Assembly: GCA_016931325.1 (NCBI GenBank)
Contig: JAFGFC010000051.1
Location: 12,639-76,638, forward strand
Length of the DNA stretch: 64,000 bases
Direction: 5' to 3'
DNA from: Spirochaetota bacterium
Lineage (GTDB): Bacteria > Spirochaetota > JAHITG01 > JAFGFC01
In this document: in pieces, positions 10,781-33,595 of the stretch
Position numbering within the stretch: position 1 is the stretch's first letter
How the letters are laid out: each line of letters opens with the position of its first letter
Program-made: the position numbers and the translations under genes
The notes under the pieces: model-generated
Database searches by the model: none
What the model saw: only the letters and a program-made list of their open reading frames with translations
What the model was told of the DNA's origin: nothing

Positions 10781-10889
10781 TTTGTAAAATGATCCAGGGT
10801 TGACCTTTAATAGTTTATCGCATTTTTAACAATTGTCAAGGATTGTTGAAAAAAATGATGATTTTTCAATTCTTTAGGTTATATTAAAA

Positions 10890-12356
10890 ATGGATATGCC
10901 AAGTAAAAAACCATGGCTTGAGCAAGTATTGTATGTTATGTGGGTGCTAACCGCTTTGATCCTGTCATTTTCATTCCTGTCGGCGGACATTTTTTTAAAC
11001 AAGGCGAAAAAAGTGCTAAACTTATCCGGAGTGGAGGACCGGATAAAGGAATTAAAGAATCCTTCTTCCCCTGCCAACGGGGAAGAAGAACCCATCGATG
11101 CGCGGGTGACAGTAAAGAAAAATCCTGACGGCACATGGCAGCTCTTTGTGGATGATAAACCATTTTTTATAAAGGGGATGATCTTTAACCCGGCCAAGAT
11201 CGGAGAGGACCCGGGGATCCCTAACCTGCGGGACTGGATGCTTTACGATGATAACGCTAACAGCACCAATGATATCGCCTTTGAGACCTGGGTGGACACG
11301 AATCTGAACAATATCAAGGATGCCACAGAACCTCTGGTTGGGGATTTCCAGCTCTTAAAAGATATGGGCTGTAATACCATCCGGCTCTATCATGTTCCGT
11401 CAGACAATCCTATCCTGGGCAATATCTACAAGATCGAACCCGGGGTCCAACTCCAGTATGATCATGCTGTGAATAAATCTCTTTTACGCAAACTCTACAA
11501 TGATTACGGTATTATGGTCATCATGAGCCATTTTCTGGGTTCATGGACCATCGGCGCCGGGGTCAGCTGGGCAGAAGGTTGTGATTATACAAACAGCACG
11601 CATCGGGAAAACATAAAAACTTCGGTCAGGGCCATGGTCCTGGACAATAAAGATGAACCCTATGTTCTCATGTGGCTTCTGGGGAATGAGAATAACATCG
11701 CTGATTTTTCTAAATGCAATGCGGTCCAGCATCCCGTGGCTTATGCCCAGCTTATAGGGGAACTGGCCCGGATGATCAAAGAGATTGACCCTCATCATCC
11801 TGTGGCGGTCTGCGACGGGGACGGATACCGCTGGTTCGCTGACCCCTTTAACACCTTGCGGGAATACCCTGATTACGCCCAGGCTGTTGATATTGTGGCT
11901 TTTAACTCTTACCATGGATCTAACGGTTTTAATCCCTATATCTGTTCCAATGTCAAATATACCTTTGACAGGCCCATCTTTTATTCCGAGTACGGCATGT
12001 TCGCCTATGATAATAATGTGGGATATGATGAGATGCTTCAAAAAAAATATCATACCAATTACTGGAAGGACATTGTTCTCCAGAGCGCCAGCAACCTGAA
12101 CATTCCACAGGAACAGTACGGGAATTGCATCGGCGGAGTGGTCTTTGACTGGTGCGACAGATGGCACATGGACGGCAATCCCTGGGCGCATGACGTCAGC
12201 ACGAACCCGGCCACTTATTCCCCCGATGGGTTAAGGCATGAAGAATGGTTCGGCGTCACCTCCATGGGAATCGGATCAGATACCTTGATGCGGCAGAAGA
12301 GGTCGGCCTATGATTATTATAAGAATGTCTGGAACAGGACCAATCTCACCTATTGA
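10890..12356 (+). CDS. Glycoside hydrolase, TIM-barrel clan GH-A (GH2/GH5-like), N-terminally membrane-anchored
   Basis: N-terminal transmembrane segment. Motif DEPYVLMWLLGNENN resembles the NHPSIIxWSLGNE acid/base region of clan GH-A enzymes. Family assignment is uncertain. Confidence 0.5.
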   Translation: MDMPSKKPWLEQVLYVMWVLTALILSFSFLSADIFLNKAKKVLNLSGVEDRIKELKNPSSPANGEEEPIDARVTVKKNPDGTWQLFVDDKPFFIKGMIFNPAKIGEDPGIPNLRDWMLYDDNANSTNDIAFETWVDTNLNNIKDATEPLVGDFQLLKDMGCNTIRLYHVPSDNPILGNIYKIEPGVQLQYDHAVNKSLLRKLYNDYGIMVIMSHFLGSWTIGAGVSWAEGCDYTNSTHRENIKTSVRAMVLDNKDEPYVLMWLLGNENNIADFSKCNAVQHPVAYAQLIGELARMIKEIDPHHPVAVCDGDGYRWFADPFNTLREYPDYAQAVDIVAFNSYHGSNGFNPYICSNVKYTFDRPIFYSEYGMFAYDNNVGYDEMLQKKYHTNYWKDIVLQSASNLNIPQEQYGNCIGGVVFDWCDRWHMDGNPWAHDVSTNPATYSPDGLRHEEWFGVTSMGIGSDTLMRQKRSAYDYYKNVWNRTNLTY

Positions 12357-14633: not shown

Positions 14634-16394
14634 CTATTTTTTGTCATTAAATTCAAAATATTTGTTTTGATCCTTTAATCTCAGAAAGGTCAGGTATTGT
14701 TCCATTTTGCCCTTATAGTCAGACTCGGAAATATGTAAGAGTTCGCATTTGATATCCTCATATTTTGTGACAGGAACACTGTAGCTGATTACACCGGCAT
14801 CAAGAAGCACGGGATAGAATTGTTCAAATGAACTCACTTCGCCGCACAAGCAGACTTCTTTGCCCTGCTGTCTCCCGGAGCGTGTCACCATTTCTATCAT
14901 CCTGACAACGGAAGGGTGCATAATGTGATAGGATTCCTGTGAAGTTAAACTCTCCCTTGAGGCTGCCACAGAATACTGCAACAGATCATTTGTCCCGATA
15001 TTGGCAAAATCCACTTCTCTTAACAGTTGATCGGCCAGCATAACGGATGAGGGTGTCTCGAACATGATCCCCAGAGGGGGTAAGGAAAATTTTTTCCCTT
15101 CCTTTTTAAGCGAGCTGGCGGCTTCATCCACCAGGTTTTTGGCTATATACAGATCATCAATGTCCGCGACCATGGGGAAAAGTATTTTTACCTGGCCATG
15201 GACCGCAGAGCGTAAAATAGAGCGAACCTGAGTTATATAAACATCCTTATACATCGCGATGGCTCTGGCTCCCCTGATGTCTGATGTCTGCTTTCCTTTT
15301 ATCATGGCTTCGATAAAGGCAGGTGTTTTGTCCGGGCTGATATCTAACAGCCGGATAATAACGCTTTTTCCTGATGTTTGCTGAAGGATATTACGGTAAA
15401 TGGATATTTGTTCTTCCTCTGAAGGAACAGACTCTCCTCTCATGAAAATAAATTCGGTTCGTAAAAGTCCGATCCCGTCATAATGGATCCCTTTTGTTTC
15501 TTCTTCAATGACATATTTTTTTAACAGATCGATCTCCCCCATGGTGCTGATATTGACCTTCAGGTTGATCCTCAACCCCTCTTTTGTCTGAACAGGATGT
15601 TTGCGTTTTAACAGGCAAAAGTCTTTCCGTTTCTTCTGCTGTTCCTGTTTTTTTATATAACGATCAAGAGTTTTTTTATCCGGCCAGACATGGACTGTCC
15701 CCACAGTGCCGTCAACGATCATATCAGCATTACAATCTATCTGGTTAATATCGATCCCGAAAACGACCGGGACATCCATGCTCCTGGCTAAAATTGTAGC
15801 ATGGGATGTATACCCACCCTGATGGGTCACAAAAGCCAGCACATTCTCCCGTGGAATATGTAAAAGCATGGAGGGTGTGAGTCTCTCTGATACGACGATG
15901 ATGCCTTCTTTTTTATTCACGGGACAGGTAAACCGGCCCTGGGCCTGGCTGAAACTTTCAATCAAACGGTCACGGACATCTTTCACATCATGAGATATCT
16001 CTTCAAAATGAAGGCCATGACGGGTTAATCTTTTTATATAATCTTCAAAAACATCTTCCAGGGCATGTTCCGCATTAATATGCCTGGATTTGATCATGGC
16101 CTCTATCTTCTCTTTTATATGGGGATCGTTCAAAATCGCCAGATGAGCGGAGATAATACTTTTTCCTTCTTCACCAAAAAGATCCCGGGACCTGTCGACC
16201 ATATTTTCTAATTTTGAAGCCGCCAGAAGAAAGGCATTATTCAACCGTTTCAGCTCATTATCGATCTGACTTTCGGGGATTTTGTAATGCGGTATATTGA
16301 TATAATCGTCTAATGAATAGAGCCCGGCCTTGCCCAACGCGATGCCGACTGAGGCAGAGAGCCCTTTGAGTATTTTCATCTCTGGCGATCTCAT
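14634..16394 (-). CDS. ptsI: Phosphoenolpyruvate-protein phosphotransferase (PTS Enzyme I-like, PEP-utilizing enzyme)
   Basis: N-terminal GLSASVGIALGKAGLY matches the EI N-terminus. Phospho-His motif GGYTSHATILARSMDVPVV. C-terminal PEP-binding motif IGTNDLLQY. No HPr gene lies in the window. The start is set at MKILKGL (the ORF extends to 16457). Confidence 0.75.
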   Translation of the reverse strand: MRSPEMKILKGLSASVGIALGKAGLYSLDDYINIPHYKIPESQIDNELKRLNNAFLLAASKLENMVDRSRDLFGEEGKSIISAHLAILNDPHIKEKIEAMIKSRHINAEHALEDVFEDYIKRLTRHGLHFEEISHDVKDVRDRLIESFSQAQGRFTCPVNKKEGIIVVSERLTPSMLLHIPRENVLAFVTHQGGYTSHATILARSMDVPVVFGIDINQIDCNADMIVDGTVGTVHVWPDKKTLDRYIKKQEQQKKRKDFCLLKRKHPVQTKEGLRINLKVNISTMGEIDLLKKYVIEEETKGIHYDGIGLLRTEFIFMRGESVPSEEEQISIYRNILQQTSGKSVIIRLLDISPDKTPAFIEAMIKGKQTSDIRGARAIAMYKDVYITQVRSILRSAVHGQVKILFPMVADIDDLYIAKNLVDEAASSLKKEGKKFSLPPLGIMFETPSSVMLADQLLREVDFANIGTNDLLQYSVAASRESLTSQESYHIMHPSVVRMIEMVTRSGRQQGKEVCLCGEVSSFEQFYPVLLDAGVISYSVPVTKYEDIKCELLHISESDYKGKMEQYLTFLRLKDQNKYFEFNDKK

Positions 16395-16404
16395 CTTAAA
16401 TATC

Positions 16405-16971
16405 TTACGGCAGGATAATAGGGATGTAACCTCTTTCCATATGCTTTTTAAACGCATCGGCAGCGCCCAGAGAATAGAGGATCTCTATCGTTTGACCTGA
16501 CTGCAGGATCTTGTATTTTTCTCCCTTGATCCTGGCCGGCCTTGAAAATTTAATAAAGGTCCATCCGTCTTTTTCCTCACTGTTCAATAATTTAATATAC
16601 TTTTCTTTTTCCTGGATCGGTTCATGTCTGTATAATCCTGTGCCGTATTCATGTAAAAGAAAAGTTTCTCCATTTTTTACATATCCGAGGATGATCTCTG
16701 AATCTTTCATCTCTTTGCTTCGGCCAAAGCCTAAAGCGATATAGCCGGTGGTCTTGCCTTTCATTTCAACAATATAAAGATCGCTCTTTTTGTTATACTC
16801 TATCACTATTGTAAAATTACCTGTTTTACTCTGAAAGACACCTTTTTCTTTATCAAGCGTATACGTTCCATATTTATTCTTTAAAACTTTCTCTTTGGCT
16901 GTAAGAATAAACGGGAGAACAAAGAGGATCAGGATAAAAAGGGCTATTCTTCTGTTAAAGATTTTGGTCAT
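16405..16971 (-). CDS. Secreted protein, possibly DOMON-like
   Basis: Signal peptide present. The beta-rich pattern (YIALGFG, ILGYVKNG) is reminiscent of DOMON/heme-binding beta-sandwich domains. Weak call. Confidence 0.35.
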   Translation of the reverse strand: MTKIFNRRIALFILILFVLPFILTAKEKVLKNKYGTYTLDKEKGVFQSKTGNFTIVIEYNKKSDLYIVEMKGKTTGYIALGFGRSKEMKDSEIILGYVKNGETFLLHEYGTGLYRHEPIQEKEKYIKLLNSEEKDGWTFIKFSRPARIKGEKYKILQSGQTIEILYSLGAADAFKKHMERGYIPIILP

Positions 16972-17061: not shown

Positions 17062-17289
17062 TTAATATAAAAGTATAACCAGAGCAGCGTGGCAGGAAGC
17101 CAGGACAAAAGAGATGATCCCCAGTATCCGGTGCCATTTGAAGGAATTCTTTACTCTTTTTCTGAATACACCCAGAACAAGCGTCAAGAACACCATAGAA
17201 TAGGTCACGATACCCAGCGGTTTGATCCATTGCATTAATTCCATATTAACCTCACTTTTATTATTCAATGCGCGGTACAGTGGCGTCAA
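17062..17289 (-). CDS. Small two-transmembrane membrane protein with a conserved His in each helix (possible cytochrome b-like or DUF4405-like)
   Basis: Two hydrophobic helices with H residues (WHRILGIISFVLASCHAALVILLY). Overlaps the upstream gene. Confidence 0.3.
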   Translation of the reverse strand: MTPLYRALNNKSEVNMELMQWIKPLGIVTYSMVFLTLVLGVFRKRVKNSFKWHRILGIISFVLASCHAALVILLY

Positions 17290-18841
17290 AAGGGTTCAAA
17301 CCGATCATGGCAAAATATCGCCACAATGTACTGGAAATACAGAAGACAAATCTATATTTTTTCTCTTCACTGAAGGAACCGGCCAGTCCGTTGCCGATCC
17401 TGGATGACCGGGCCAGGGGCCACCAGTCATTAAAGGCGTAGACGAACTGCTTGTCTTTTATGATATGGGAAACATACGGGAGCTCGTTATTTTCCGAACG
17501 GGTTATTAAATCTATATATCGATTCATCTCATCAACATAAAACCTGTACTTTTTTAAGAATGATTCCGCTGCTCTGTTTTCTGATCTGCCCACAGCATAA
17601 TCAGCCAGCATATTGTAATCCAGAGCCATCTGTCCTGTGCCCTCCCACCAGATCATAGGTTGATCCCGCCTCTGGCTGTAGGCCTCTTTAATGGTAAAAT
17701 CAAATCCCCAGAATTTTTCCCCCTGCACCATAACCTCTACCCTGAATTTATCCTCTGCCTGTCTCACCAGTTCTATAGGATCTATGCCCATCCTGTCCAG
17801 GTCTTCAGGCCCGATCCCGCATATGGCCCATGAATTAACATCCAGGGCTTCGAGCGTATCCACAACATACTCCCATTTCCCCTTTACTTTGGTAGGGCCG
17901 TATCCACCCCGGTTAAAGGTTCCCCTCTGGTTCCAGGCTATTCTTTTGAACCAGTTTTGCGTGGCCAACTTTTCTTTCTCGATATCTTTAAAGGAAATAT
18001 CATTCTTTTTCATTATGGCCAGGACCCGGTTGTCTTTCATGTTGACCATGGCCAGACAATTCTTTAAAAAGGCATAATAGTCAATAATGTTCTCAGTGGA
18101 AAATACCTTCTGCCAGTCAGGTCCCCAACCGTATCCCATGCTGGGAGCGCCTCTTTCTCCCTGAGGCAATGTGTAATGCGTAAAATCCCTGGCCCAGTTG
18201 AACATCTTCATCACAAAATCAACAAATAAAAGCGATCGCGTTCTAAAATAATAAAACTGGGCCGCCAGCCCGACCCATATATTAGGACCGATATGGATCC
18301 TGTCCCCGTCAATACCCATAACCAGCTGGTTGTATTTTCCGGGTTTGGTATAAAAATAATGGTCAAACATGGTCACATCATAGGCATTAAAAAGCCCGAG
18401 ACAGTTGTTCTTCCTGAGTGAAAAATTATCCTCGAACAAATGCAGCATGTACTCGGCTTTTTCATAATCCTCCATATCGATCATGGCGATCAAGACCAGG
18501 GCATTGTCATACAAAAAAGCCTGACTGTCAAGGTATCCTTTTTCGGTGCGCATGAGAGGGATCTCAAGGAACCTGACATCTTCGATCCAGTTCGCGGTAC
18601 CGGTAAAACTCTGATAAAGCCCTGTTGTTTTTACCTCTATGGATTGTAAAAATCTTTTCAGCTTTTTTCTTTCATCACTGACACCGGGGAAGACCTTGTG
18701 AGACAAGATCAACAATAACAGGATGATCCAGATTACTTTTTTTGTATAAAGCGTCAGCATGATCTTTTTATTCCCTATCCGTATAATATATTTCATCAAG
18801 ATAGAATACTGATCCCTGGGAGTTATTCTGATAACTGACAA
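17261..18841 (-). CDS. Hypothetical membrane-anchored protein, possibly (alpha/alpha)6 glycosidase-like
   Basis: N-terminal transmembrane segment. Motifs AFLYDNALVLIAM, GYGWGPDW and WWEGTGQ suggest a six-hairpin glycosidase fold. Not firmly assignable. Confidence 0.35.
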   Translation of the reverse strand: MSVIRITPRDQYSILMKYIIRIGNKKIMLTLYTKKVIWIILLLLILSHKVFPGVSDERKKLKRFLQSIEVKTTGLYQSFTGTANWIEDVRFLEIPLMRTEKGYLDSQAFLYDNALVLIAMIDMEDYEKAEYMLHLFEDNFSLRKNNCLGLFNAYDVTMFDHYFYTKPGKYNQLVMGIDGDRIHIGPNIWVGLAAQFYYFRTRSLLFVDFVMKMFNWARDFTHYTLPQGERGAPSMGYGWGPDWQKVFSTENIIDYYAFLKNCLAMVNMKDNRVLAIMKKNDISFKDIEKEKLATQNWFKRIAWNQRGTFNRGGYGPTKVKGKWEYVVDTLEALDVNSWAICGIGPEDLDRMGIDPIELVRQAEDKFRVEVMVQGEKFWGFDFTIKEAYSQRRDQPMIWWEGTGQMALDYNMLADYAVGRSENRAAESFLKKYRFYVDEMNRYIDLITRSENNELPYVSHIIKDKQFVYAFNDWWPLARSSRIGNGLAGSFSEEKKYRFVFCISSTLWRYFAMIGLNPFDATVPRIE

Positions 18842-19451
18842 CCCAGCAGAAGCCGCCTATAATATAGGAAAGGTCAATACCCTTTAATGAGATCTGGTAA
18901 CGTTTCCACTTTTTACTTAAAGTGACAACCATCTCATCGGTACACCCGGAATCAGGATACGGTCCTCTGACACCACCCATGGTAAATCTGACCTCTTCTC
19001 CTCCCTGTTCCCCCCTGGCGTAGAAAACAAGTTTGGTGGCTCCCCTGAGGTCATATCCCTGATGGGGGATAAAGCCCCAGTTATTGGCCGGATTCAACCA
19101 GAAAACCCCGGCCCAGTGTTCTTCGTTCATCTCAGGATCAAAGACAGGGTCATAGACCACTTTAATGCAGCTGATCCCCTGGAAAGGTTTTTGTTTGCAG
19201 TTGCCCCAGAATCGTATGGTCAAATAATCTCCCATCCGGCCTGTCGGAAAATAGTGTACATTACCGATGGAGCCGTAGTTTTTATAGAGATAGAAGGGAA
19301 ATGTAACTTTTTTACCTTTCAGATTCAAGGGAATCTTATTCTCATAAGTTTTATTATTATTATCGCTGTAATCCGGGACATTATAATAAGTAAAAGAAAA
19401 TACCAGTCCCAGAGCCAGAATAATGTATAGTTTATTTCTTCTCGATATCAT
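18768..19451 (-). CDS. Secreted paralog-family protein A (unknown beta-sandwich or CBM-like family)
   Basis: Signal peptide present. Shares FYARGxxGxEVxF, LSKKWKRYxIxL, GGF and YLDEIYY motifs with 19461-20087, 20325-20984 and 32948-33595. Confidence 0.5.
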   Translation of the reverse strand: MISRRNKLYIILALGLVFSFTYYNVPDYSDNNNKTYENKIPLNLKGKKVTFPFYLYKNYGSIGNVHYFPTGRMGDYLTIRFWGNCKQKPFQGISCIKVVYDPVFDPEMNEEHWAGVFWLNPANNWGFIPHQGYDLRGATKLVFYARGEQGGEEVRFTMGGVRGPYPDSGCTDEMVVTLSKKWKRYQISLKGIDLSYIIGGFCWVVSYQNNSQGSVFYLDEIYYTDRE

Positions 19452-19460
19452 CTTATCCCT

Positions 19461-20087
19461 TTATCTCTCGATCTTTATCTCATCAATATAAATGGTGACC
19501 AATTCCTTGCGATACTGTTTATGGTCCATCCATCTCATGGCCAGAGAAAATCCAAGACTGATATGGGTTAGATCCTCTTTATCCAGGAGGATGGTATATT
19601 TTTTCCATTGTCGTGTTAATTTGACCGGCCCATAGAGGATCTCTGTAGAATCAGAGAACGTGCCGTAATTCCCGCCGAATTTAAAAATGACCACTTCATC
19701 TCCCTTCTTTCCCCTGGCATAAAAGGTCAGCTGTCGGGCCCCTGTAAGGTCCAGCCCGCCATCAATATTGCCCCAGTTATAGCTGGGGAAGGTCCAGTTG
19801 ATGCTGATCCAGTTAAATACCGATTGCCGCCTTGTGTTATATTCGAATTTCATGCAGTAATTCCCGGTTTTGGGTTTTTCCGTGCAGAACTGGTTATACT
19901 GAATGCAGAGAACATCACCGCCCCAGCAGGTGGGAGCATAAAATGAACGCTCCGTCCAGATATCACCATCCAGATAAATAACGACAGGATATTTTTGCGG
20001 TTTGTAGGCATAACCATAAAGACTGTTATTTATCAGGCCGACCATGAGAAAAAATATTATAAATACAGGACAGATGCTTCTTCTCAT
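19461..20087 (-). CDS. Secreted paralog-family protein B
   Basis: Signal peptide present. Motifs FYARGKKGDEVVIF, LTRQWKKYTILL and IYIDEI shared with paralogs A, C and D. Confidence 0.5.
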   Translation of the reverse strand: MRRSICPVFIIFFLMVGLINNSLYGYAYKPQKYPVVIYLDGDIWTERSFYAPTCWGGDVLCIQYNQFCTEKPKTGNYCMKFEYNTRRQSVFNWISINWTFPSYNWGNIDGGLDLTGARQLTFYARGKKGDEVVIFKFGGNYGTFSDSTEILYGPVKLTRQWKKYTILLDKEDLTHISLGFSLAMRWMDHKQYRKELVTIYIDEIKIER

Positions 20088-20324
20088 TTCCTTTTTCCCC
20101 AGTTCATTCTAATGTAACGGAAATAATCCAGTTCGTCAACATGAAATCATCAGCCATCCCCCGGAAATGAAGAGGGCCGGTTTGCTTTAGCAAATCCGAC
20201 CCTTTTGTTTTCTTGAGGATGCTTTAGAAGTTTTGGTTGATTTGGTTGATCCGGCAAGAATTATACTCAGTATATATATATTCCTTGCTCATCACACCTT
20301 TTTTAAAAGAACGATCCAAAACTT

Positions 20325-20984
20325 TTAATTTAATTCATTATAAGCGGTTCTCTGTGCAGAGAGACTGGTTGATTCTTCATTATTGGAATAATAGACATCA
20401 TCCACATAGAATGTGCAACCATCAGGATTATCCTTGGCATAAAGGACAAATCCAAAACCACCGGCTATATCCTTCAATTCCAAACAACTCAGGTCTATTT
20501 CATATTTTTTCCATTCTTTGGAAAGAACGATCTTTTTACTGGTCTTTGAATCCTTTGGGTTTTGCTGCCTTGTTCTGTTCATGCTGAATTCAACGACCTC
20601 ATTGCCATGCTTTCCCCTGGCATAGAAATATACTTTTTTAGCGGGAGTCAGATCATATCCGCCACGTATGGAGATCCAGTAATTATTGGGATTGGACTGA
20701 AAATACAGACCGGCCCATCCATCACCTTCACCGGCTGCGGTATAGGTGACTCTCAGAGCAGAAGAGCCGGAGCGGGTATTCTTATCCCATCTGTTGTCCA
20801 TTCGGATGTCCCGGATATCTCCCATCCAGCCGCTCGGAATGCCTCTATCCAATTTGCTTTCAGCATTGGAATAGATATAAAATGGGTAACGCAACACCTT
20901 GTAACTCATAAGAAAATCATCATCTTCAGCTAAAAGGATTGATCCCATTGACAAAACAATTAAAATAAGGAGTAGTCTTTTCAT
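20325..20984 (-). CDS. Secreted paralog-family protein C
   Basis: Start at MKRLLLIL with an AAGGAGG ribosome-binding site. Motifs PSGWMGD, YFYARGKHGNEVVEF, LSKEWKKYEIDL and FYVDDVYY. Closest to paralog D. Confidence 0.55.
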   Translation of the reverse strand: MKRLLLILIVLSMGSILLAEDDDFLMSYKVLRYPFYIYSNAESKLDRGIPSGWMGDIRDIRMDNRWDKNTRSGSSALRVTYTAAGEGDGWAGLYFQSNPNNYWISIRGGYDLTPAKKVYFYARGKHGNEVVEFSMNRTRQQNPKDSKTSKKIVLSKEWKKYEIDLSCLELKDIAGGFGFVLYAKDNPDGCTFYVDDVYYSNNEESTSLSAQRTAYNELN

Positions 20985-21043
20985 GATATTTACCTCCTTT
21001 CCCCTTTTCATTAGTAAGGACAATGGTCAGGGAAAAAAGTGCA

Positions 21044-21206
21044 AGAATTTTTTTTAATATTTGAGGATTCAGGCCGTGTGAAAATCAGCCCTCTGGAATT
21101 TCCAAGAGAAATTCCGAGGATAAAGTCCTGGAAATTTCTCTAGAAATTTCACAGGAAGATCTTCCAGGGAGATTCAAGGGGTCCAGGGTTCCTGGACCCC
21201 TTGAAT
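21044..21206. repeat. Structured intergenic repeat, family 1, copy 2; contains a perfect 16-bp-arm hairpin at 21172-21206
   Basis: Collinear sequence blocks with 447-578. attcaaggggtccagg-gtt-cctggaccccttgaat is a perfect inverted repeat. gaaatttct-ct-agaaatttc is also palindromic. Confidence 0.5.
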
Positions 21207-21339: not shown

Positions 21340-21765
21340 ATGGGTCATCATCATGAAAAGGAAACGGTGATACGGTTTGGTATCTCTATTGAAGAACATT
21401 TATTGGAATCATTCGACCGGTATTTGAAAAAAAAGCATTATAAGAACCGGTCAGAAGCCATAAGGGATCTGATCCGCGACAGGCTTTCTGACGCAAAGAA
21501 AGAATCAGGGGAAGAGAAGACGGTGGCCATTGTCTCGTACCTCTATAACCATCATATTCCCCAGCTAACGGAAAAGATCGTCCATATGCACCATCATTCT
21601 CACATCAAGATCTACTCCACACAGCATATTCATCTTTCCAGGGAATTGTGCCTTGAGATCACGATCGTGGAAGGGGAAATGGCCAGGGTGAAAGATTTCA
21701 GCAACAGGATACAGTCGCTAAAAGGGGTTCAGCATTTGACCGTCAATCACTACTTCTTGACCTAA
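21340..21765 (+). CDS. nikR: Nickel-responsive transcriptional regulator NikR
   Basis: N-terminal RHH (RFGISIEEHLLESFDRYLKKKHYKNRSEAIRDLIRDRL) and C-terminal His-rich metal-binding domain (HMHHHSH...), typical NikR architecture and length (141 aa). Confidence 0.85.
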   Translation: MGHHHEKETVIRFGISIEEHLLESFDRYLKKKHYKNRSEAIRDLIRDRLSDAKKESGEEKTVAIVSYLYNHHIPQLTEKIVHMHHHSHIKIYSTQHIHLSRELCLEITIVEGEMARVKDFSNRIQSLKGVQHLTVNHYFLT

Positions 21766-22286
21766 AATAGATTAGCTTCCTTGAGGATAAAATTGATCAT
21801 CAGATCAAAGTTTAATTTGTCTTTTTTAATCGGCTCGGGGAACGAGGGAAAGCAGGTGATCTTCTCCAGGGCCTTTTTAACTTCCCTATCCAAAATTTCA
21901 AATCCGGAGCTCTTTTTAATCCTGAAATTCAACAGCCTCCCGTCACAGGCCACTGTGAAATTGATAAGGGCTTTGCCCTCCAATTTTCTTTTCCTGGCCA
22001 TAAAAGGGTACTCGAGATTTTTGTATATCTCAGCTCTCAAAACCTCTCTGAAAGCGATAATGGAATTTTTCTCTGCGGATTGTTGCCCCACATCACTTTC
22101 ATCCTCCAGCCTGGTCCTGTCAGACACCTGATTGACAGGTGTAAGAATGACTTCCACGTACTCCGCTTCCTGGGCAGGGTCATGTTTTATTGAACCGGCT
22201 TTGAACAGACCGGGAATTAAAAGGAACACCGCGTGGACCAGCACAGAACAGATCAGACTAATATAAAATATCCGTTTTGTTTTCAT
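21762..22286 (-). CDS. tonB: TonB family energy transducer (C-terminal TonB domain)
   Basis: N-terminal transmembrane segment. C-terminal YPFMARKRKLEGKALINFTVACDGRLLNFRIKKSSGFEILDREVKKAL matches the TonB_C fold motif. Confidence 0.7.
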   Translation of the reverse strand: MKTKRIFYISLICSVLVHAVFLLIPGLFKAGSIKHDPAQEAEYVEVILTPVNQVSDRTRLEDESDVGQQSAEKNSIIAFREVLRAEIYKNLEYPFMARKRKLEGKALINFTVACDGRLLNFRIKKSSGFEILDREVKKALEKITCFPSFPEPIKKDKLNFDLMINFILKEANLF

Positions 22287-22289
22287 GGG

Positions 22290-22892
22290 TTATATTTTTC
22301 TCGCTTTAACCAGAAAATAACCGTTATTAACATACTTTTCAAGCAAAAATCCGGTTTTTTTCAATATGATGTCAAACCAGGATTTATCCGGAATATGATG
22401 CATTCTCATTTCAAAACCAAATTCTCTGTGCATTTTATTGATATGCTCTCTGTTCTGACTGTGTGATATCACAAGAAGACCTTTCTTCTTTAACAGATGA
22501 TATATATTCTTTAAAGTCCGGGTCTTGTTTTCAAAATGAGGAAAACAGTTAAAGCAGATCACCATATCAATTTTCTGTTCCAACTCCACATTTTCTATAT
22601 TGGCAAGAAGACATCGGGAATTAGAAATATGAACCATTTTGTTCTCGGCAAATTTTAGCATCTTTCCAGAGATATCGACCATCCATAAAAACCCGTCCAG
22701 TCCGATATGTTCAAGAATATAAGGAGAAAAATCCCCCTTGCCGCACCCCGCCTCAACAACTTTCATCCCTTTATCAAGCCCGAATTTTTTAACCAGGCCA
22801 CGTATCTTCTCCACTTCTTTTTTTTTATTGACCCAGTCATTCTGGTAGGTTTCAGCCACTGAATCAAAAATCTCTTTAATCGACCTTTGCAT
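22290..22892 (-). CDS. Class I SAM-dependent methyltransferase
   Basis: Motif I VVEAGCGKGDFSPYIL and methyltransferase-fold spacing. Embedded in the metal-uptake operon. Confidence 0.7.
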   Translation of the reverse strand: MQRSIKEIFDSVAETYQNDWVNKKKEVEKIRGLVKKFGLDKGMKVVEAGCGKGDFSPYILEHIGLDGFLWMVDISGKMLKFAENKMVHISNSRCLLANIENVELEQKIDMVICFNCFPHFENKTRTLKNIYHLLKKKGLLVISHSQNREHINKMHREFGFEMRMHHIPDKSWFDIILKKTGFLLEKYVNNGYFLVKARKI

Positions 22893-23682
22893 AAACTCTC
22901 CTTTTTGGTGAAATTAAATAAACGATCAATAAGATAAAAGAAAGGAAAATAGCCACCGTGGCGCTGACCGGCCAGTTGAAAGTAAAAGAAAATATCACGC
23001 CCCCGGCTCCCCCCAGCGAAGCAAAAAAGGAAGATAGAAAAATAAATTTTTTGATGTCATAGGTTATCTGATAGGCGATAGATGGCGGAATAATGATAAG
23101 ACTGAAAAGCAAAAGCCCGCCGATAATATTCAAATTCACCGTTATCACCGCGCCAACAAAAAAAAGTAAAACGTAAAAAAATAACCGGTCATTGATTCCC
23201 AGGGAAGCGGCGATCTCTCTGTTGAACAAGATCGCCACCAGCTCCTTGAAAAAGGCGGCTATAAACACGCCGAGGGCAAAAAGCAGAAAGATCAGGAAAA
23301 TGATATCCAGAGAATCCACCAGAAGGATGTTACCCCATAACAGATCTAGAATAACTCCTTTCTGTGGTAAAAGGCCCATTCCCAAAAATGCTATTCCCAG
23401 AACAAAAGAAAAAAGAATACTGATGGCGATATTGGGGCTGATCCTGCTTTTTTCTGACAGGGGAGGTATAAAAAGTGAGCTCAAAAGAGAAAATCCCAGG
23501 GCCATGACCCTGGATGGGAGCCCCAGGATCATACCCCATATCCCGCCCGCCATGGCCGAGTGTGACAAGGTTACACCTATAAACGGAATATTTAAAAGAA
23601 AAATAAAAACCCCTATGATCCCGCACTGTATTCCGGTTAATATAATAATGAATAAACTTTTATAAAGGATCGAATCAGTCAT
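22876..23682 (-). CDS. Metal ABC transporter permease (ABC-3 / ZnuB-TroCD-like)
   Basis: About 8 transmembrane helices, 268 aa. Pattern typical of ABC-3 permeases. Overlaps neighbours in operon fashion. Confidence 0.75.
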   Translation of the reverse strand: MTDSILYKSLFIIILTGIQCGIIGVFIFLLNIPFIGVTLSHSAMAGGIWGMILGLPSRVMALGFSLLSSLFIPPLSEKSRISPNIAISILFSFVLGIAFLGMGLLPQKGVILDLLWGNILLVDSLDIIFLIFLLFALGVFIAAFFKELVAILFNREIAASLGINDRLFFYVLLFFVGAVITVNLNIIGGLLLFSLIIIPPSIAYQITYDIKKFIFLSSFFASLGGAGGVIFSFTFNWPVSATVAIFLSFILLIVYLISPKRRVYAKVD

Positions 23683-24403
23683 AAATATAACTCAGGAAAT
23701 CTTTTTTTTCCCAGAGCTCCTTTTTTTGCCCCTGAAAAATGACATGGCCGTTCTTTAAAACAACGATCCTGTTGCTGAATTCCGAAATATGGGTTATCAG
23801 GTGGGTCACGAAAAGGACCGTGAGTCTGTGATCGATGTATATCTTTTCCACCATTTTCAAAAATTTTTTATAAGCCTGAATATCAAGATTGACGTTTGGT
23901 TCATCCAGAAAAAGTATCTCAGGTTTCTGGATCAGGACAAAAGCCAGCATCACCTTCTGCCGTTCTCCTCCGGATATCAGGCCAAAAGGTTTATTCAAAA
24001 GATGATGGATCTTGAACTCTTTTTCTACGGAGCGGATAATATCTCTGTCGTTTTTATCAATTCTTTTAAGTATCCCCTTGCCCGAACGACCCATGACAAG
24101 CACGTCCTTGACTAGAATGGGAAAATACGGATCCATATCCAGCCTCTGAGGCATATAGGCTATATTTTTTCTGATCGAACGTATCTTTGACTTTGTATTT
24201 TCCTGATTAACAAAAATCTCGCCCTGCCCGGCTTTATAAAAACCCAGAATTGTTTTCAAAAGGCTTGTCTTTCCTGACCCGTTCGGTCCCAGGATCGTAA
24301 TAAATTCTCCCTTTTTAACATCCAGATCAATATGATTCAATATGGCATGACCATGACCGGAAAGGCAAACATTTTTAACTCTTATCGCATATCCCTGAGC
24401 CAT
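23675..24403 (-). CDS. Metal ABC transporter ATP-binding protein (ZnuC/TroB-like)
   Basis: Walker A GPNGSGKTSLLK, signature LISGGERQ, Walker B ILFLDEP. Confidence 0.85.
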   Translation of the reverse strand: MAQGYAIRVKNVCLSGHGHAILNHIDLDVKKGEFITILGPNGSGKTSLLKTILGFYKAGQGEIFVNQENTKSKIRSIRKNIAYMPQRLDMDPYFPILVKDVLVMGRSGKGILKRIDKNDRDIIRSVEKEFKIHHLLNKPFGLISGGERQKVMLAFVLIQKPEILFLDEPNVNLDIQAYKKFLKMVEKIYIDHRLTVLFVTHLITHISEFSNRIVVLKNGHVIFQGQKKELWEKKDFLSYIYD

Positions 24404-24409
24404 ATTCGG

Positions 24410-25228
24410 TTATTCCTCCAGACCCTTCTTTAACTGTTCCAAATTGCCTGACCAGAGGTGAAGGAACATGGGATCCCTGGAAAAATCAGGAAAGTTGGCA
24501 AATATAATGATTTTTTTGTTTAGTCGTTTTTCAAAAACCAGGGCTGTGGGATGATGGTCCCCTGTTCTATTGCTGATGATATAATCTATCCCTTCTCTTT
24601 TTGAATCCCTTCTGATCTTTTCTATCTGCTTTAATCCTGAACTTTCCAGACCGGCAAAAGTGGCTATCACCTCCAGGCCCAGATACTCGCAGAATCCTTT
24701 TTGAAAGGCGCTGGCTATCACTTTGATACGTTTCTTCTTTATCCTCTCCAGGAAAGAACGTTCTTTTTCAACAGTCTGCTGAATGGTTTTAATCGTTTGT
24801 TCCCGGTTCGTCTTTATTTTCAGGCTATCATCCGGAAAATAACGGCTCAGGATCGTTTCCATCTCTTTTAACGCGCTGAAATAGTTCTCTGGCACTGTAA
24901 GATCAGGACTGGTAATGATATGAATCTTTATCAACGGATTGATCTTTTGTATTTTTGCCACCAAATATTTCTGAAAAGGATGGATCATTAAAAAAGCGGC
25001 CTTTCGGATGGAGAGGGCATCAGAGGGCTTTAGATCAAAATGTCCCGGACACTGGCCCGGCGGCACAAGATTCATGATAGCCAGATCCGGATCCAGATCC
25101 CTGACCAGTGATATGATCATGGTTGTACCGGCTAGAACGATCCTGCCTTGCGGCCGTTCTTTAGAACAGGATAAAATAAAGGCCAGCAAAAGGAACAGAG
25201 TTATATAATTTTTCATTGTTGTTCGCAC
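24410..25228 (-). CDS. Metal-binding periplasmic or lipoprotein substrate-binding protein (TroA/ZnuA cluster A-I)
   Basis: Lipobox-like LSCS. HFDLKPSD...A motif like the HxyxPSP/D motif of ZnuA/TroA substrate-binding proteins. Confidence 0.65.
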   Translation of the reverse strand: MRTTMKNYITLFLLLAFILSCSKERPQGRIVLAGTTMIISLVRDLDPDLAIMNLVPPGQCPGHFDLKPSDALSIRKAAFLMIHPFQKYLVAKIQKINPLIKIHIITSPDLTVPENYFSALKEMETILSRYFPDDSLKIKTNREQTIKTIQQTVEKERSFLERIKKKRIKVIASAFQKGFCEYLGLEVIATFAGLESSGLKQIEKIRRDSKREGIDYIISNRTGDHHPTALVFEKRLNKKIIIFANFPDFSRDPMFLHLWSGNLEQLKKGLEE

Positions 25229-25244
25229 AGGATGACCATCCGTT

Positions 25245-27113
25245 CTAAATATTTAACAGCACGCCTGTTTTCAAGATCAACCCCGGCGCCGGATAACCTG
25301 ATCTTACTAGATATTTTTCATTAAGGATATTTTCCGCATCCAGATAAAAATGCCATTCTGTATTGCTCATGGTTAGGTCATAGTTGACAGAAGAGTTGAG
25401 AACCATATAATCATCCAGTTTTTCTTTTTTTTCATCTGAATCATACCGGTCCCGGGCAAATTCTGCCTCCACTTTCATCGACAGAGGGGAAGTGATTTGA
25501 ATGATCGTATAGGCTTTGCCATTGAACAAGGCCAGGTGGGCTGTTTTTTTGCCTGGATCAAGATATCCCAAAAGCAAGCCGCTTTTTATCGCCGGGATCG
25601 GTTTGACCCAAGCCTCCAGTTCCAGGCCATTTATGATAATCTTGCCTGAATTTTCAAACGAGGGTGGAAAGGGAGGGGGGCCTACCTGCTGTATCAAATT
25701 TTTTCCTGTTATTTGATAATACGATAATTTGTAGAAAAATCGATTATGAATTTCCTTCAGGCCTGTTTCATACTGCCAGTAATCTTCCGGTTCCGTGACA
25801 TTATATTCAGGAGGGTTTATGATAGCCATGCATTCTCTGCCAAATTCAGGTGTCTTATATCCTCTCTGCGCATTGCCATAAAGATACTGATCAGCCCGGA
25901 TATTGACCTGGATCCCACCTGAAGGAATGATGATCTCATCCCATACGTTATTATAAGCGTACCGGATGCCTCCGGATAAAATTACAATATCCAGCTTTTG
26001 ATCCATCAAGGTGTACGCCGCGTAATCATTTTGAATTTTTTTCAATTCCTGATGACCGCCCGCCGGGTGATCATTATATACACCGCCAAACTGCTGCCAG
26101 TCAAATCCAATCTTTGTCTGATTCCCCTTGAATAATTGCACGGTTTCCATTATCCTGAGGCCATAGTCCTCGAAAATATTATTGCTGTCATTAAAAAATT
26201 TATTCAGCCCGGTATCAGCATACAGGATCACTTTGCCTCTTATATGGTCATACTCATGTTCAACCCTGAAATCAAAATCCCTCTGAATGGTTTTACCGGC
26301 AGCGTCATATCGACCCCAGTCAGCATTCGTGGGACCCGGGTTATAAAAGAGGATATCCGCGTAATCGACATTGGCCCGGACATACCAGTTGGCGTTGATC
26401 TCGTATCCTGCTCCCATATGATAATTCTGTTGATAGGAATCAGAATTTTCTCTGCCTCCCTCTGTGGACTTGTAGCCCACAGACAGGTTATAGTCAAAAG
26501 GTCCTGTCTTGAACCGATTGTTTATAAAATAATCCTGAGAGTTGTAACTGCCGTAAGCCAGGCCAATGGCTGTTCTTATACCGTCTTTTCTCATCCGCTT
26601 GGTTCTGATATCAATGACACCACCCACAGCCTGGTTCCCGTGTTCGACTCCTGAGGGTCCTTTTATCACCTGCACGCTTTCAACAGCATCCAAAGACAGC
26701 GTATCAAGCAGAGGATGCCGCCATATCCCCATGCTCTGCGGCCGGTCATCGACAAAGGTCAGCACCCCTGTATTGGGTATCTCCCCCAGGCCGCGGATCT
26801 TGAATACAGACGGATTCTTGGAACCGACCTGGAAACTGACCGGACCTGTCTTGTTAAAATAAATACCGGAAACATCTTTGGTAAGATCAATCACATTATG
26901 CCGGCTGTTATTTTCAATAGTCTGGGAACGAAAGGTCACAACGGATTGACTCGAACGGTTCAAATCAGAAACAGACTCATCTTTCACGACAGGAACAGTC
27001 TCTTTTTTAACCTTGATCTCGCCCAGGTCAATGGTTTCGGATCCTTTCTGAGCCTGGCCGAAGCCAATGAATCCGGCAAGGAATATAAATATTATTGATA
27101 GATGTTTCATCAA
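25245..27113 (-). CDS. TonB-dependent outer-membrane receptor
   Basis: Signal peptide present. Plug-domain motifs (VFKIRGLGEIPNTGVLTFVDDRPQ, GPSGVEHGNQAVGGVIDIRTK) and a long beta-barrel region. Confidence 0.8.
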   Translation of the reverse strand: MMKHLSIIFIFLAGFIGFGQAQKGSETIDLGEIKVKKETVPVVKDESVSDLNRSSQSVVTFRSQTIENNSRHNVIDLTKDVSGIYFNKTGPVSFQVGSKNPSVFKIRGLGEIPNTGVLTFVDDRPQSMGIWRHPLLDTLSLDAVESVQVIKGPSGVEHGNQAVGGVIDIRTKRMRKDGIRTAIGLAYGSYNSQDYFINNRFKTGPFDYNLSVGYKSTEGGRENSDSYQQNYHMGAGYEINANWYVRANVDYADILFYNPGPTNADWGRYDAAGKTIQRDFDFRVEHEYDHIRGKVILYADTGLNKFFNDSNNIFEDYGLRIMETVQLFKGNQTKIGFDWQQFGGVYNDHPAGGHQELKKIQNDYAAYTLMDQKLDIVILSGGIRYAYNNVWDEIIIPSGGIQVNIRADQYLYGNAQRGYKTPEFGRECMAIINPPEYNVTEPEDYWQYETGLKEIHNRFFYKLSYYQITGKNLIQQVGPPPFPPSFENSGKIIINGLELEAWVKPIPAIKSGLLLGYLDPGKKTAHLALFNGKAYTIIQITSPLSMKVEAEFARDRYDSDEKKEKLDDYMVLNSSVNYDLTMSNTEWHFYLDAENILNEKYLVRSGYPAPGLILKTGVLLNI

Positions 27114-27256
27114 TCATAGTCTCCCTTATTTCGTGTTACTTTTTTATAAAAAATATTACTTTATCAGGAAAAGTCAAGTTAAAAGTAATTTAAACAGTTA
27201 TAATATGGATCAATGAAATAAATTGAAGAATGGCAGACTGATTTTATCTTGAAAAC

Positions 27257-28963
27257 TCAGAGGATTAGATTTAAAATACCGCCTACGATCAGCGTGGACA
27301 GGATCATAACCGCTGTGGCTTTTGCCATATCCAGAATACCCAGCTCTTTAACAAGCACGGTAAAGGTAGCGACACAGGGAAAGTACATGGTAAGGATAAC
27401 ACTGGCGATCACCAGCTGCTTGAGGCTCATTCCCAGAGGGGCCAGCATTCCCACAGCCACATCCTTTCTTAAAAAACCGATGACCAGGGCTCCCACTGAC
27501 TCTTTTGGCAATCCGAGCACTCCTTTGATCACCGGCTCACTCAATTTTCCTAAAAAAGAGATCACACCAAGAACATAAAGCATATTGATAATAAATACTC
27601 CTACAATAACATAAGGAACAGCCTCGGATAAAAAACCTTTGATCCGCATCCAGAGCTTTTTTAAAAGTCCTTTCCAGTAAGGGATACGGTAGGGGGGGAT
27701 CTCCAGAAAGATCTCAGGACTTTCACCTTTTATCAACTTGTTCATGATAACGCCAAGGACAAATCCGACTATAAAAAGAGTGAAAAAGACCACGCCTATC
27801 CCTTTAACGCCATATTGCCCCACAAGACCCATTACCATGGCTATCTGGGCGGTACAGGGCACACAGATGGCCATGACCGTGGCCGCGATAAACCGTTCCT
27901 TCTTGGTTTCCAGAATACGCGTGGCCAGGGCGCCTGGGACATTACAGCCCAGGCCCAGGATCATGGGGATGATGGAAAGCCCGTGTAATCCCAGACGATG
28001 CATAAAATTATCAACCAGCACAGCCAGCCGCGGCAGATATCCGGAATCTTCCAGGAAGGATAGTATAAGATAAAAAGCAAAAATATAGGGTAATACCATG
28101 GCAAAGGGGACAAAAAGACCTGTTGTTAAAAGCCCGAGAGATTCAACAAAGTCAATGCGACCGTTGATCAGCCTTCCTATCAGGATGTCATGGATCATAC
28201 CCGGTTTTAAAAGAGACGATAATTTCAGGATCAGGGGCCCATAAATTTTTTCAAAAAACGGTTCAAATAAATAGGTGATGAGCGATTCCCCGATAAATCG
28301 TATAACAGCAAAGGAAAGTATAAGAACAAGAATAGAAAGCGGGAGACCGGTCATAGGTTTAATGGTAAGATCCAGGACCCTTTCCCAAACGGTATGGTGC
28401 CGATGGCTTATCCTCTGGACATTCTGAATAATATGACCCACTTTGCTCCATCTCTGGTTTTCTCTGAAGGTATAGGATCTGGCTTTGGCCTGGTCTATTC
28501 TTGAAAAAAGGTTTTTTATCCCTTCGCCGGTCAGAGCGCAGGTCGTAACGACCGGCACTCCGATTATTTTCTCAAGTCGATCAACATTAATTGAAATACC
28601 AATATGTTTCACTTCATCCCAAAAGTTTAAAACAACAATAACGGGTTTACCTGATTTTAAAAGCTGCAAAGTTAAATTTAAATTCCTTTCCAGGTTCGTG
28701 GCATCCAGCACATTAATGACCAGGTCCGATGAATGAAAGATCTTAACAGCGACTTCCTCAGCCCGGTTTGTCGCCTTCAGGGAATATGTTCCGGGAGCAT
28801 CGATCAGCTCTGACTTTTCATTCTCTTTTCTGATATACCCCTTCGTGTACTCTACTGTTGTTCCTGTGTAATTGGAAGCGATAACATTCACACCGGTGAG
28901 CCGGGAAAAAATTACGCTCTTCCCTACATTAGGATTTCCCATTAAGACAATTCGTTTCATCAT
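27257..28963 (-). CDS. feoB: Ferrous iron transporter FeoB (G-protein domain plus membrane domain)
   Basis: GNPNVGKSVIFSRLTG (G1 motif), NYTGTTVE, followed by a polytopic membrane domain. Confidence 0.9.
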   Translation of the reverse strand: MMKRIVLMGNPNVGKSVIFSRLTGVNVIASNYTGTTVEYTKGYIRKENEKSELIDAPGTYSLKATNRAEEVAVKIFHSSDLVINVLDATNLERNLNLTLQLLKSGKPVIVVLNFWDEVKHIGISINVDRLEKIIGVPVVTTCALTGEGIKNLFSRIDQAKARSYTFRENQRWSKVGHIIQNVQRISHRHHTVWERVLDLTIKPMTGLPLSILVLILSFAVIRFIGESLITYLFEPFFEKIYGPLILKLSSLLKPGMIHDILIGRLINGRIDFVESLGLLTTGLFVPFAMVLPYIFAFYLILSFLEDSGYLPRLAVLVDNFMHRLGLHGLSIIPMILGLGCNVPGALATRILETKKERFIAATVMAICVPCTAQIAMVMGLVGQYGVKGIGVVFFTLFIVGFVLGVIMNKLIKGESPEIFLEIPPYRIPYWKGLLKKLWMRIKGFLSEAVPYVIVGVFIINMLYVLGVISFLGKLSEPVIKGVLGLPKESVGALVIGFLRKDVAVGMLAPLGMSLKQLVIASVILTMYFPCVATFTVLVKELGILDMAKATAVMILSTLIVGGILNLIL

Positions 28964-29199
28964 TTTCTACCTGTTTCTTTCACGAAAATCCTTCTGGCCA
29001 TCCCAAAACCCAGGGCCACCTGACAGGCACCGATCTTGATACAAACCGGGCCTTTCATGAATTGAGAACTTTTCTTTTCTATTACAACCCCCTTTCTTAT
29101 TCCCAGGGCTTCCAATTTATTTATGAAACCATGACCGCCATCCAACCCGGTTATCAGCCCTTTTTCACCTTCCTTAAGATCAATTAGAGTTTTCATCAT
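28960..29199 (-). CDS. feoA: FeoA family protein
   Basis: SH3-like FeoA pattern (LKEGEKGLITGLDGG...LGIRKGVVIEKK...GPVCIKIGACQVAL). Start at MMKTLIDL; the ORF extends further into the upstream gene. Confidence 0.7.
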   Translation of the reverse strand: MMKTLIDLKEGEKGLITGLDGGHGFINKLEALGIRKGVVIEKKSSQFMKGPVCIKIGACQVALGFGMARRIFVKETGRK

Positions 29200-29200
29200 T

Positions 29201-29635
29201 TCACTCCTTTTTCTTCTGCAGATATCGTTTGAACTCGTTCTTGACTGGGGTTTTCTTTCTCTCAAAAGATTCCATAAAAGAGACAAATTCGACCAGCCTT
29301 TCAAAGGTCTTTTCATGGATGTAGTGCTCGATCCTGCAGGCATCTTCCCTGGCTATCTTTTCATCAACACGCAGGATCTCTTTTAAGAATTTTATCAATA
29401 TTTTATGCTTTTTATATACCTGCCTGGCTTTTCTGACACCCGATGGCGTGAGTTCAATATACCCGTAGTGTTCGTGATTCACGTATCCTTTTTCTGACAG
29501 CACTTTTAACGCCCCTATAACAGAGGAGGTTTTCACGTTCATGGTAGAGGTCAGATCCTTGACCCTTACCACTTTGCGCTTGGTCTGTTCCATAAAGATG
29601 GTTTCAATATAATCTTCCAGGCTGGGTGTCAGCAT
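29201..29635 (-). CDS. DtxR/MntR-family metal-dependent transcriptional repressor
   Basis: LEDYIETIF...VRVKDLTSTMNVKTSSVIGALKVLSEKGYV...ACRIEHYI matches the DtxR helix-turn-helix and metal-site pattern. 144 aa, no SH3 domain. Confidence 0.8.
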   Translation of the reverse strand: MLTPSLEDYIETIFMEQTKRKVVRVKDLTSTMNVKTSSVIGALKVLSEKGYVNHEHYGYIELTPSGVRKARQVYKKHKILIKFLKEILRVDEKIAREDACRIEHYIHEKTFERLVEFVSFMESFERKKTPVKNEFKRYLQKKKE

Positions 29636-32947: not shown

Positions 32948-33595
32948 TTAATTGATTTTATTTTTTGTTGCGCTTACCCTTCCTACTGTATCAATCATCT
33001 CATCCTGATTGGTGTAGTAAATCTCATCAATATAGAATGTCACTGTGCCTGAATTATCGCTGGCTTTTACCAGGACCGAGAATCCACCGGCCATATCCTC
33101 AAACTTGTTGTTTAATTCGAGTTCGTATTTCTTCCACTCTTTTGAGAGTTCAATTCTTTTAGAGATCTTTGCCTGCTGCCCTTTCAGAGGGGCCATTCTG
33201 AATTCAACAACTTCATCACCTTTGTTACCTCTGGCATAGAAATAAATCTTTTTGGCTGTAGAGAGGTCATATCCGCCTCTTATCGATGTCCAGTGGTTAT
33301 AAGGATTCTGCGCAAAATTCAATGAAGCCCATTTTGCTCCGACTGTTTCAGCGCTGTATTCGATCTTCATACAGCTTGTTCCTTTCTTGGGATTGATCGT
33401 CCATTTGTGGTCGATCTTCAGATCCCTGAAATCTCCTGCCCACCCGCTGGGTATACAATTATTAATACGGCTCGTACCGTCTTTGTAGACCTGGAAGGGG
33501 TAACGCAGAACCTTAAAGCATTTTAAATGTTCAGTATAAAGATTGAGAACCATTAACCCGACGATCAAAATGACAACAACCATTAACTTTTTCAT
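32948..33595 (-). CDS. Secreted paralog-family protein D
   Basis: KVLRYPFQVYKDG...PSGWAGD...YFYARGNKGDEVVEF...LSKEWKKYELEL...FYIDEIYY; about 45-50% identical to paralog C by eye. Confidence 0.55.
   Translation of the reverse strand: MKKLMVVVILIVGLMVLNLYTEHLKCFKVLRYPFQVYKDGTSRINNCIPSGWAGDFRDLKIDHKWTINPKKGTSCMKIEYSAETVGAKWASLNFAQNPYNHWTSIRGGYDLSTAKKIYFYARGNKGDEVVEFRMAPLKGQQAKISKRIELSKEWKKYELELNNKFEDMAGGFSVLVKASDNSGTVTFYIDEIYYTNQDEMIDTVGRVSATKNKIN

Follow-up and report, generated by a model that had tools for sequence, protein, structure and literature searches.

A 64,000-nucleotide stretch of Spirochaetota DNA (contig JAFGFC010000051.1; hereafter the window) encodes four small paralogous proteins, A-D, each carrying one copy of a beta-jelly-roll module that is unclassified within Pfam, NCBIfam and the PDB. 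We think it probable that these proteins are exported, bind glycans as stand-alone modules, and capture polysaccharide or present it to hydrolases that act as their partners. The evidence comes from the fold of the module, the domains fused to it in a large bacterial family, and the genes found beside it. The four genes are:

18768..19451, minus strand: paralog A, 227 amino acids (aa), A-type module, from the list of open reading frames (ORFs).
19461..20087, minus strand: paralog B, 208 aa, B-type module, opening the B-A-(alpha/alpha)6 cassette, from the ORF list and BLASTP.
20325..20984, minus strand: paralog C, 219 aa, C/D-type module, probably monocistronic, from the ORF and its ribosome-binding site (RBS).
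32948..33595, minus strand: paralog D, 215 aa, C/D-type module, solitary, from the ORF list and BLASTP.

These are the four ORFs picked out in a preliminary description of this DNA, which was made from the sequence alone. Every pair is significantly similar in BLASTP searches, with composition-corrected E-values from 1e-20 to 1e-71: C and D are the closest (47% identity, E=1e-71), followed by A and C (1e-34), B and D (1e-30), A and D (8e-29), A and B (3e-26), and B and C (1e-20). Searching the window by tblastn with all four sequences yielded exactly four copies of the module and no fifth. The motifs that had been listed as shared, PSGWxGD, FYARGxxGxEVV, LS/TKxWKKY, GGF and FYxDEIYY, map to columns that are fully or almost fully invariant when the four sequences are aligned, and the identical columns are conserved across hundreds of homologues. 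Together with the BLASTP results, this conservation establishes homology and excludes compositional bias, the alternative origin of the motifs that the preliminary description had raised.

A single point favors the idea that these genes are an artefact of bias, chance ORFs or decaying pseudogene copies: B and A lie in the same reading frame with a gap of 9 nt, only a stop codon and three further codons apart (19449-19463, minus strand). A has its own RBS and a signal-like N-terminus, however, and B and A are separate genes at three other loci (L007, L084 and L085), so we rejected the notion of one gene split by a sequencing error or a stop codon. Given the BLASTP E-values, 2,971 homologous representatives and a confident AlphaFold2 (AF2) fold, the chance that the whole set is artefactual is negligible, and we regard this explanation as already refuted.

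The N-terminus of each protein reads as one to three basic residues followed by 13-16 hydrophobic ones, and residues 4-17 of A form a helix in the AF2 model. We infer from these N-termini that A-D are secreted. Signal peptides had been claimed for all four; the basic and hydrophobic segments are indeed present in all of them, but a clear AxA-like cleavage site is found in C only (LLA/ED), and A, B, and D could instead be signal-anchored. Inspection of the N-termini found no lipobox in any of the four. C most likely starts at the ATG at 20984, which has AGGAGG 7 nt upstream; the TTG at 21023, where the region was first taken to end, is an unlikely start.

In a confident AF2 model, A consists of the signal-like N-terminus, a low-confidence linker of ~30 residues, and a beta-jelly-roll at ~50-224. 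This galactose-binding-domain-like fold is that of carbohydrate-binding module (CBM) families CBM30, CBM11 and CBM4_9, in agreement with the initial impression of a beta-sandwich or CBM. Profiles of the module give remote signals against CBM30 and CBM4-2 structures (E 0.03-0.1), and neither profile has a significant match to any solved CBM structure. A-D had earlier been left without a named family, and none of them reaches the Pfam gathering score of CBM30 (PF21582), CBM11 (PF03425) or CBM4_9 (PF02018): the best scores are 15.9 bits for B against CBM30 (cut-off 27) and 15.7 bits for C against CBM_4_9 (cut-off 25.9), and the Pfam scan returned no CBM match for A or D. Likewise, 0 of 49 single-domain family members match a CBM Pfam family with E below 0.0019. 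Only multi-repeat proteins exceed a cut-off, through scores summed over their repeats; against CBM30 these reach 37.8 bits (P0121) and 31.4 bits (P0122), and the best summed CBM_11 match among the homologues has E=1e-9. These multi-repeat scores support a distant common ancestry with the known CBMs. The module is thus a beta-jelly-roll distantly related to the type-B families CBM11, CBM30 and CBM4, and a candidate new CBM family. In the CAZy sense, a CBM is a discrete module inside a carbohydrate-active enzyme; homologues of A-D occur in this form, while A-D themselves stand alone.

Several features set the module apart from its nearest relatives. It shares only 14-18% identity with CBM11 (PDB 1V0A) and CBM30 (PDB 2C24/1WMX) and has a distinct motif set (PSGWMGD, WAGxYWQNPxNNWG, FWARGxxGGE, GGF, FYLDxI). 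CBM11 and CBM30 are modules of Clostridium thermocellum cellulosomal glucanases, whereas A-D are stand-alone secreted proteins; the partners of the module are glycoside hydrolase (GH) family 17, GH158-like and (alpha/alpha)6 proteins, in contrast to the cellulosomal GH5/9/26/44 partners of CBM11 and CBM30. CBMxx, a laminarin-binding type-B beta-sandwich of marine Bacteroidota surface glycan-binding proteins (PDB 8QX6), is found in CBM-only proteins in 72% of cases, in up to eight repeats and in tandem copies, and is co-localized with laminarin-active GH16, GH17 and GH30 genes (bioRxiv 10.1101/2023.09.07.556657). Our module matches this architectural pattern, making CBMxx a close functional analogue, but we detected no sequence homology to the CBMxx founder. 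A comparison with CIA30, which the preliminary description had recommended, gave neither a sequence match to that family nor a best structural match.

To describe the family, we combined a word-indexed search with an exhaustive HMMER search of 1.84 billion cluster representatives. The former returned 582 matches, the best of which are hypothetical proteins of ~383 aa without Pfam annotation, mostly from Candidatus Omnitrophota, that consist of a signal peptide and two tandem module copies. The latter identified 2,971 homologues at E<=1e-3, of which 1,953 pass E<=1e-10; the highest number of repeats in any one protein is eight. In a survey of one genome per species, the module is carried by Omnitrophota, Elusimicrobiota/Endomicrobia, Caldiserica, Auribacterota, Spirochaetota, Planctomycetota, Armatimonadota, Lentisphaerae, and Bacteroidota, the last including cultured Winogradskyella (in Winogradskyella sp. 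HB-48 as a fusion protein, 8711-10507 in L077). The Omnitrophota two-module protein is colinear with B followed by A (38% identity over 389 aa), which suggests that the pair and the two-module form are related by gene fission or fusion.

The domains fused to the module are, for the most part, those expected of a carbohydrate-binding protein. A GH17-like domain is the commonest identifiable partner, occurring in 11 of 59 multidomain representatives and in 6 of 21 further scanned module proteins; one such fusion matches the Rhizomucor miehei GH17 beta-1,3-glucanosyltransferase 4WTP with E=5e-16. The 59 representatives also include GH26, GH2_C-like barrels, NosD/beta-helix, OmpA, cohesin, type IX secretion system (T9SS) sorting and Ig-like domains, and PKD, fn3 and Big domains are found among the partners as well. 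Proteins of ~600 aa from Bacteroidota, Armatimonadota, Pirellula (Planctomycetota) and Krumholzibacteria join an N-terminal clan GH-A TIM barrel to a C-terminal module. The GH17-like, GH158-like, GH26, NosD/beta-helix and (alpha/alpha)6 partners are typical of a CBM, and the T9SS, cohesin, OmpA, PKD, fn3 and Big domains point to a surface or envelope context. From fold and partners together, we infer that A-D bind carbohydrate.

Some Omnitrophota proteins join FecR, an anti-sigma domain, to a C-terminal module (10504-11697 in L039 and 10517-11707 in L043). Such a protein could be a periplasmic anti-sigma factor that senses glycan directly. The same fusions would also fit a module that binds no carbohydrate at all and serves as a periplasmic sensor or chaperone-like domain (CIA30-like, or an anti-sigma sensor) for a protein or small molecule; we consider this quite improbable. 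The reading of A-D as glycan-binding proteins also draws on the genes next to them, beginning with the one directly downstream of A:

17261..18760, minus strand: secreted (alpha/alpha)6-barrel protein, putative GH-like enzyme, 499 aa, starting 8 nt downstream of the A stop codon.
20174..20202, minus strand: stable hairpin followed by UCUUCAUUU (a U-rich tract) between C and B, likely intrinsic terminator of the C transcript.

Two neighboring genes had been called GH-like at the outset, at 10890-12356 and 17261-18841. Both assignments find support, the first in similarity to GH158 (see below) and the second in a predicted model, but the start of the second needed correction: it is most likely the ATG at 18760, as called on an identical public contig, so that the gene does not overlap A. 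The model is an (alpha/alpha)6 six-hairpin barrel (pLDDT 93), the fold of the six-hairpin glycosidase superfamily. The protein has no Pfam or NCBIfam match, its best PDB sequence match is unrelated (E=0.053), and by sequence it belongs to no named GH family; identity to the six-hairpin glycosidases GH15, GH8, GH76, MmpH and dextran dextrinase is 6-13%. Only 32 homologues could be detected, and the protein is a candidate founder of a new family of glycoside hydrolases (or epimerases). Epimerases and isomerases also adopt the (alpha/alpha)6 fold, so hydrolase activity is not assured. A match to the alpha/alpha-toroid of a fusion protein in L073 was marginal (E=0.006 over 31 residues) and was not used.

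The order B-type, A-type, (alpha/alpha)6 recurs at L007, L084, L085 and L086 in otherwise unrelated surroundings. At L007, the cassette is flanked by UvrA, an alanine symporter and MetH; at L084 and L086, it is adjoined by an extracytoplasmic function (ECF) sigma factor and a beta-propeller protein, the latter with FecR in L086. At L086, the A-type and (alpha/alpha)6 genes of the cassette are fused into one; P0233 likewise combines the module with an (alpha/alpha)6 enzyme.

In the window, the minus-strand RNA of 20150-20240 has a folding energy of -34.5 kcal/mol (z = -5.8), and 0 of 200 shuffled sequences were as stable. A consensus terminator scan missed this hairpin, whose stem is bulged, and consensus promoter and terminator scans at both loci found about as many sites as in shuffled sequence and left the transcription units undefined. 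Because the stable hairpin and U-rich tract separate C from B, C is apparently monocistronic, and B, A and the (alpha/alpha)6 gene, which are probably co-transcribed, seem to form an operon. Downstream of the cassette are a secreted DOMON protein (16405-16971, minus strand) and a phosphoenolpyruvate (PEP)-utilizing protein resembling phosphotransferase system (PTS) enzyme I (14634-16457, minus strand); their linkage to the cassette is not conserved in related contigs, and we do not count them as parts of it.

The second enzyme lies 6.4 kb from the cassette:

10890..12356, plus strand: putative GH158-like clan GH-A TIM-barrel glycosidase, 488 aa, with a Pfam Glyco_hydro_2_C match (E=2.6e-9).

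Its best PDB match by phmmer is GH158(Pro) 9oro_A (E=1.3e-9), in an alignment that covers only ~140 of the 488 residues at low identity. E267 (in GNEN) and E367 (in SEYG) align with residues 135 and 221 of the 9oro chain, which are the catalytic Glu143 and Glu229 in the numbering of the paper; the protein thus has both the similarity and the conserved acid-base and nucleophile Glu residues that mark GH158. Like BuGH158 and GH158(Pro) (9ORO), it belongs to the clan GH-A (beta/alpha)8 barrels; Pfam recognizes it only through a weak GH2_C TIM-barrel match. Characterized GH158 enzymes have been found experimentally to be beta-1,3 and beta-1,3/1,4-glucanases (PMC13195107; PMC7157763).

Homologues of the 10890-12356 protein (36-39% identity, E<=1e-72) adjoin module genes at 26 loci, and 17 Omnitrophota-type loci have a second, more divergent GH158-like paralogue on the other side of the module gene. 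Altogether, 48 of 80 module loci contain a relative within the fetched flanks. The TIM barrel of the ~600-aa module fusions is homologous to the same protein as well (E=1e-10 and 6e-7). The Omnitrophota two-module protein has a GH158-like gene on either side: L082 and L083 share the order PilZ, sugar solute-binding protein (SBP), two ABC permeases, major facilitator superfamily (MFS) transporter, TPR-GH, two-module protein, GH paralogue and a ~530-aa unknown protein. Next come a ROK kinase and a LacI regulator in L083, and a pair of T2SSE-type secretion ATPase genes and a GGDEF protein in L082. This gene content suggests a locus for glycan uptake.

The GH17-like and GH158-like partners come from two independent families, both active on glucans with beta-1,3 or mixed linkages, and beta-glucans are also what the closest CBM relatives bind. 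On these grounds, we tentatively suggest such a glucan (laminarin, curdlan or mixed-linkage type) as the likeliest ligand, a proposal that may well prove wrong.

The neighborhoods also contain genes of cyclic di-GMP (c-di-GMP) signaling, which bear on a different explanation: A-D could be structural proteins of the envelope or of a biofilm matrix that bind the cell's own glycans (exopolysaccharide, lipopolysaccharide or peptidoglycan), while the hydrolases, controlled by c-di-GMP, would remodel a glucan that the cell makes itself. The first gene of the Omnitrophota locus is a PilZ gene (93-794 in L082), a GGDEF gene is directly upstream of the module in Caldiserica (8339-9778 in L002), and a Response_reg-GGDEF gene (10549-11496) follows two genes downstream of the L085 cassette. 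In the window, a HAMP-GGDEF gene (8918-10780, minus strand) is divergent from the GH158-like gene, and D lies 260 nt downstream of a gene for a 1681-aa kinase/GGDEF protein whose C-terminus aligns with the GGDEF region of a Pfam-confirmed diguanylate cyclase in L002. The module-OmpA fusions (for example 10528-11817 in L002, OmpA E=1e-27) and the high conservation of the two-module protein across Omnitrophota would also suit an envelope function. In contrast, no gene for polysaccharide synthesis by a synthase or for polysaccharide export was seen next to the cassettes. The Omnitrophota loci are equipped for uptake and catabolism (SBP, permeases and MFS, joined in L083 by the ROK kinase and LacI), and the module is most often fused to GHs that degrade or transglycosylate. 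Taking both sides together, we judge this explanation unlikely. Glycan-responsive c-di-GMP control near the module and GH158-like genes is possibly a feature of these loci. We rejected a conserved synteny of a large kinase/GGDEF gene followed by the module, as seen at D, since L017 has an intervening gene on the opposite strand and a kinase of only 939 aa; beyond this, GGDEF and PilZ genes recur only loosely. No Rfam family reached its gathering score anywhere in the window, and upstream of C there were only meaningless sub-threshold matches, which leaves no c-di-GMP or other riboswitch.

How did four such paralogs come to lie in one window? The preliminary description had proposed tandem diversification. 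In best hits and a neighbor-joining domain tree (a distance tree without support values, in which only the grouping into three clades is reliable), A clusters with P0182, P0233 and the second gene of L007; B with P0239, P0238 and the first gene of L007 (9213-9884); and C and D with L061, L012, P0165 and P0171. Each paralog is 50-59% identical to proteins of other genomes, compared with 26-38% to its siblings in the window; the exception is the C-D pair, at 47%. Moreover, a single metagenome-assembled genome, STB_17, holds all three subtypes across L012, L061 and L086. Because their nearer kin are in other genomes and all subtypes coexist in STB_17, A-D are best read as three old subfamilies (A, B and C/D), an inherited repertoire and not a recent tandem burst. 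Expansion, which the preliminary description had advised looking for, does occur in relatives: besides the proteins with up to eight repeats, Elusimicrobia arrays contain five consecutive single-module genes (L025, L026, L029 and L048; about 5.7-10.5 kb in each), the opening gene of each array being very divergent from the other four. Of the adaptive surface or substrate-capture role first proposed, then, glycan capture holds as the best-supported reading, and a recent tandem diversification does not.

The subtypes have diverged to different degrees. Of the 68 positions in the family consensus, 58 are retained in A, compared with 44-46 in each of B, C, and D; A has Arg where PSGWMGD has Trp, and two loops, NNWG and GGIxGxYxDS, are divergent in C and D. 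The three subtypes differ in two loops and probably in specificity or affinity.

We propose the following role. A-D would be exported through the Sec pathway as stand-alone proteins with one module copy each. Once in the periplasm or on the cell surface, they would bind polysaccharide chains that are soluble or form gels, holding this substrate or presenting it to the co-encoded glycoside hydrolases. A and B would partner the (alpha/alpha)6 enzyme encoded directly downstream; the module family would partner, more loosely, the GH158-like enzyme 6.4 kb away and, more widely, GH17 enzymes. The three subtypes A, B and C/D would share the labor by differing in specificity or affinity.

Other features of the window lie around these genes. 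An 898-aa protein with a PorP/SprF (type IX secretion) domain and many TPR repeats is encoded at 5068-7764 (plus strand), which hints that the source organism has T9SS-like components, which would offer Sec-exported proteins a route to the surface. Between C and the divergent NikR gene (21095-21206) are four GAAATTTC-type palindromic motifs (21095-21150) and a perfect 16-bp inverted repeat (21172-21206), which may be operator sites. C and D are separated by a metal-homeostasis cluster (21340-29635) with Pfam-supported NikR, TonB, methyltransferase, ABC-3 permease, ABC ATPase and TonB-dependent receptor genes, and with a putative solute-binding protein, FeoB, FeoA and a DtxR-like protein as candidates from sequence alone. 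Convergent with D is a small carotenoid-type cluster (30216-32855, plus strand) comprising a DUF2141 protein, a candidate 491-aa FAD-type desaturase-like ORF and a lycopene cyclase (PF18916). The 343-aa protein at 40233-41264 (minus strand), which matches the NAD glycohydrolase translocation F5/8 type C domain (PF25302, E=2e-22), is likewise a secreted jelly-roll protein but no relative of the A-D family.

A broader reading of these data, taken as a whole, is doubtful though not far-fetched. It would have the module found a phylum-spanning beta-1,3-glucan CBM family (about 3,000 clusters at 50% identity) and the 499-aa protein found a GH family; together with the GH158-like enzymes, these would form a glucan capture-and-degradation system, distinct from polysaccharide utilization loci (PULs), that is widespread in Omnitrophota and their relatives, and the FecR-fused modules would be direct glycan-sensing anti-sigma factors. 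The conceptual gain would be incremental, as CBMs with a beta-sandwich fold are already well established, and so are glycan-binding proteins that stand alone and the pairing of such proteins with glucanases. Nevertheless, if the module does bind glycans, a widespread unannotated CBM family would be added to the CAZyme toolbox, probably along with a new (alpha/alpha)6 enzyme family. In Omnitrophota, Elusimicrobiota, Caldiserica and Bacteroidota, genes for thousands of proteins now called hypothetical would become interpretable as genes of glycan utilization, with hints at the polysaccharides eaten by uncultured, often ultra-small bacteria.

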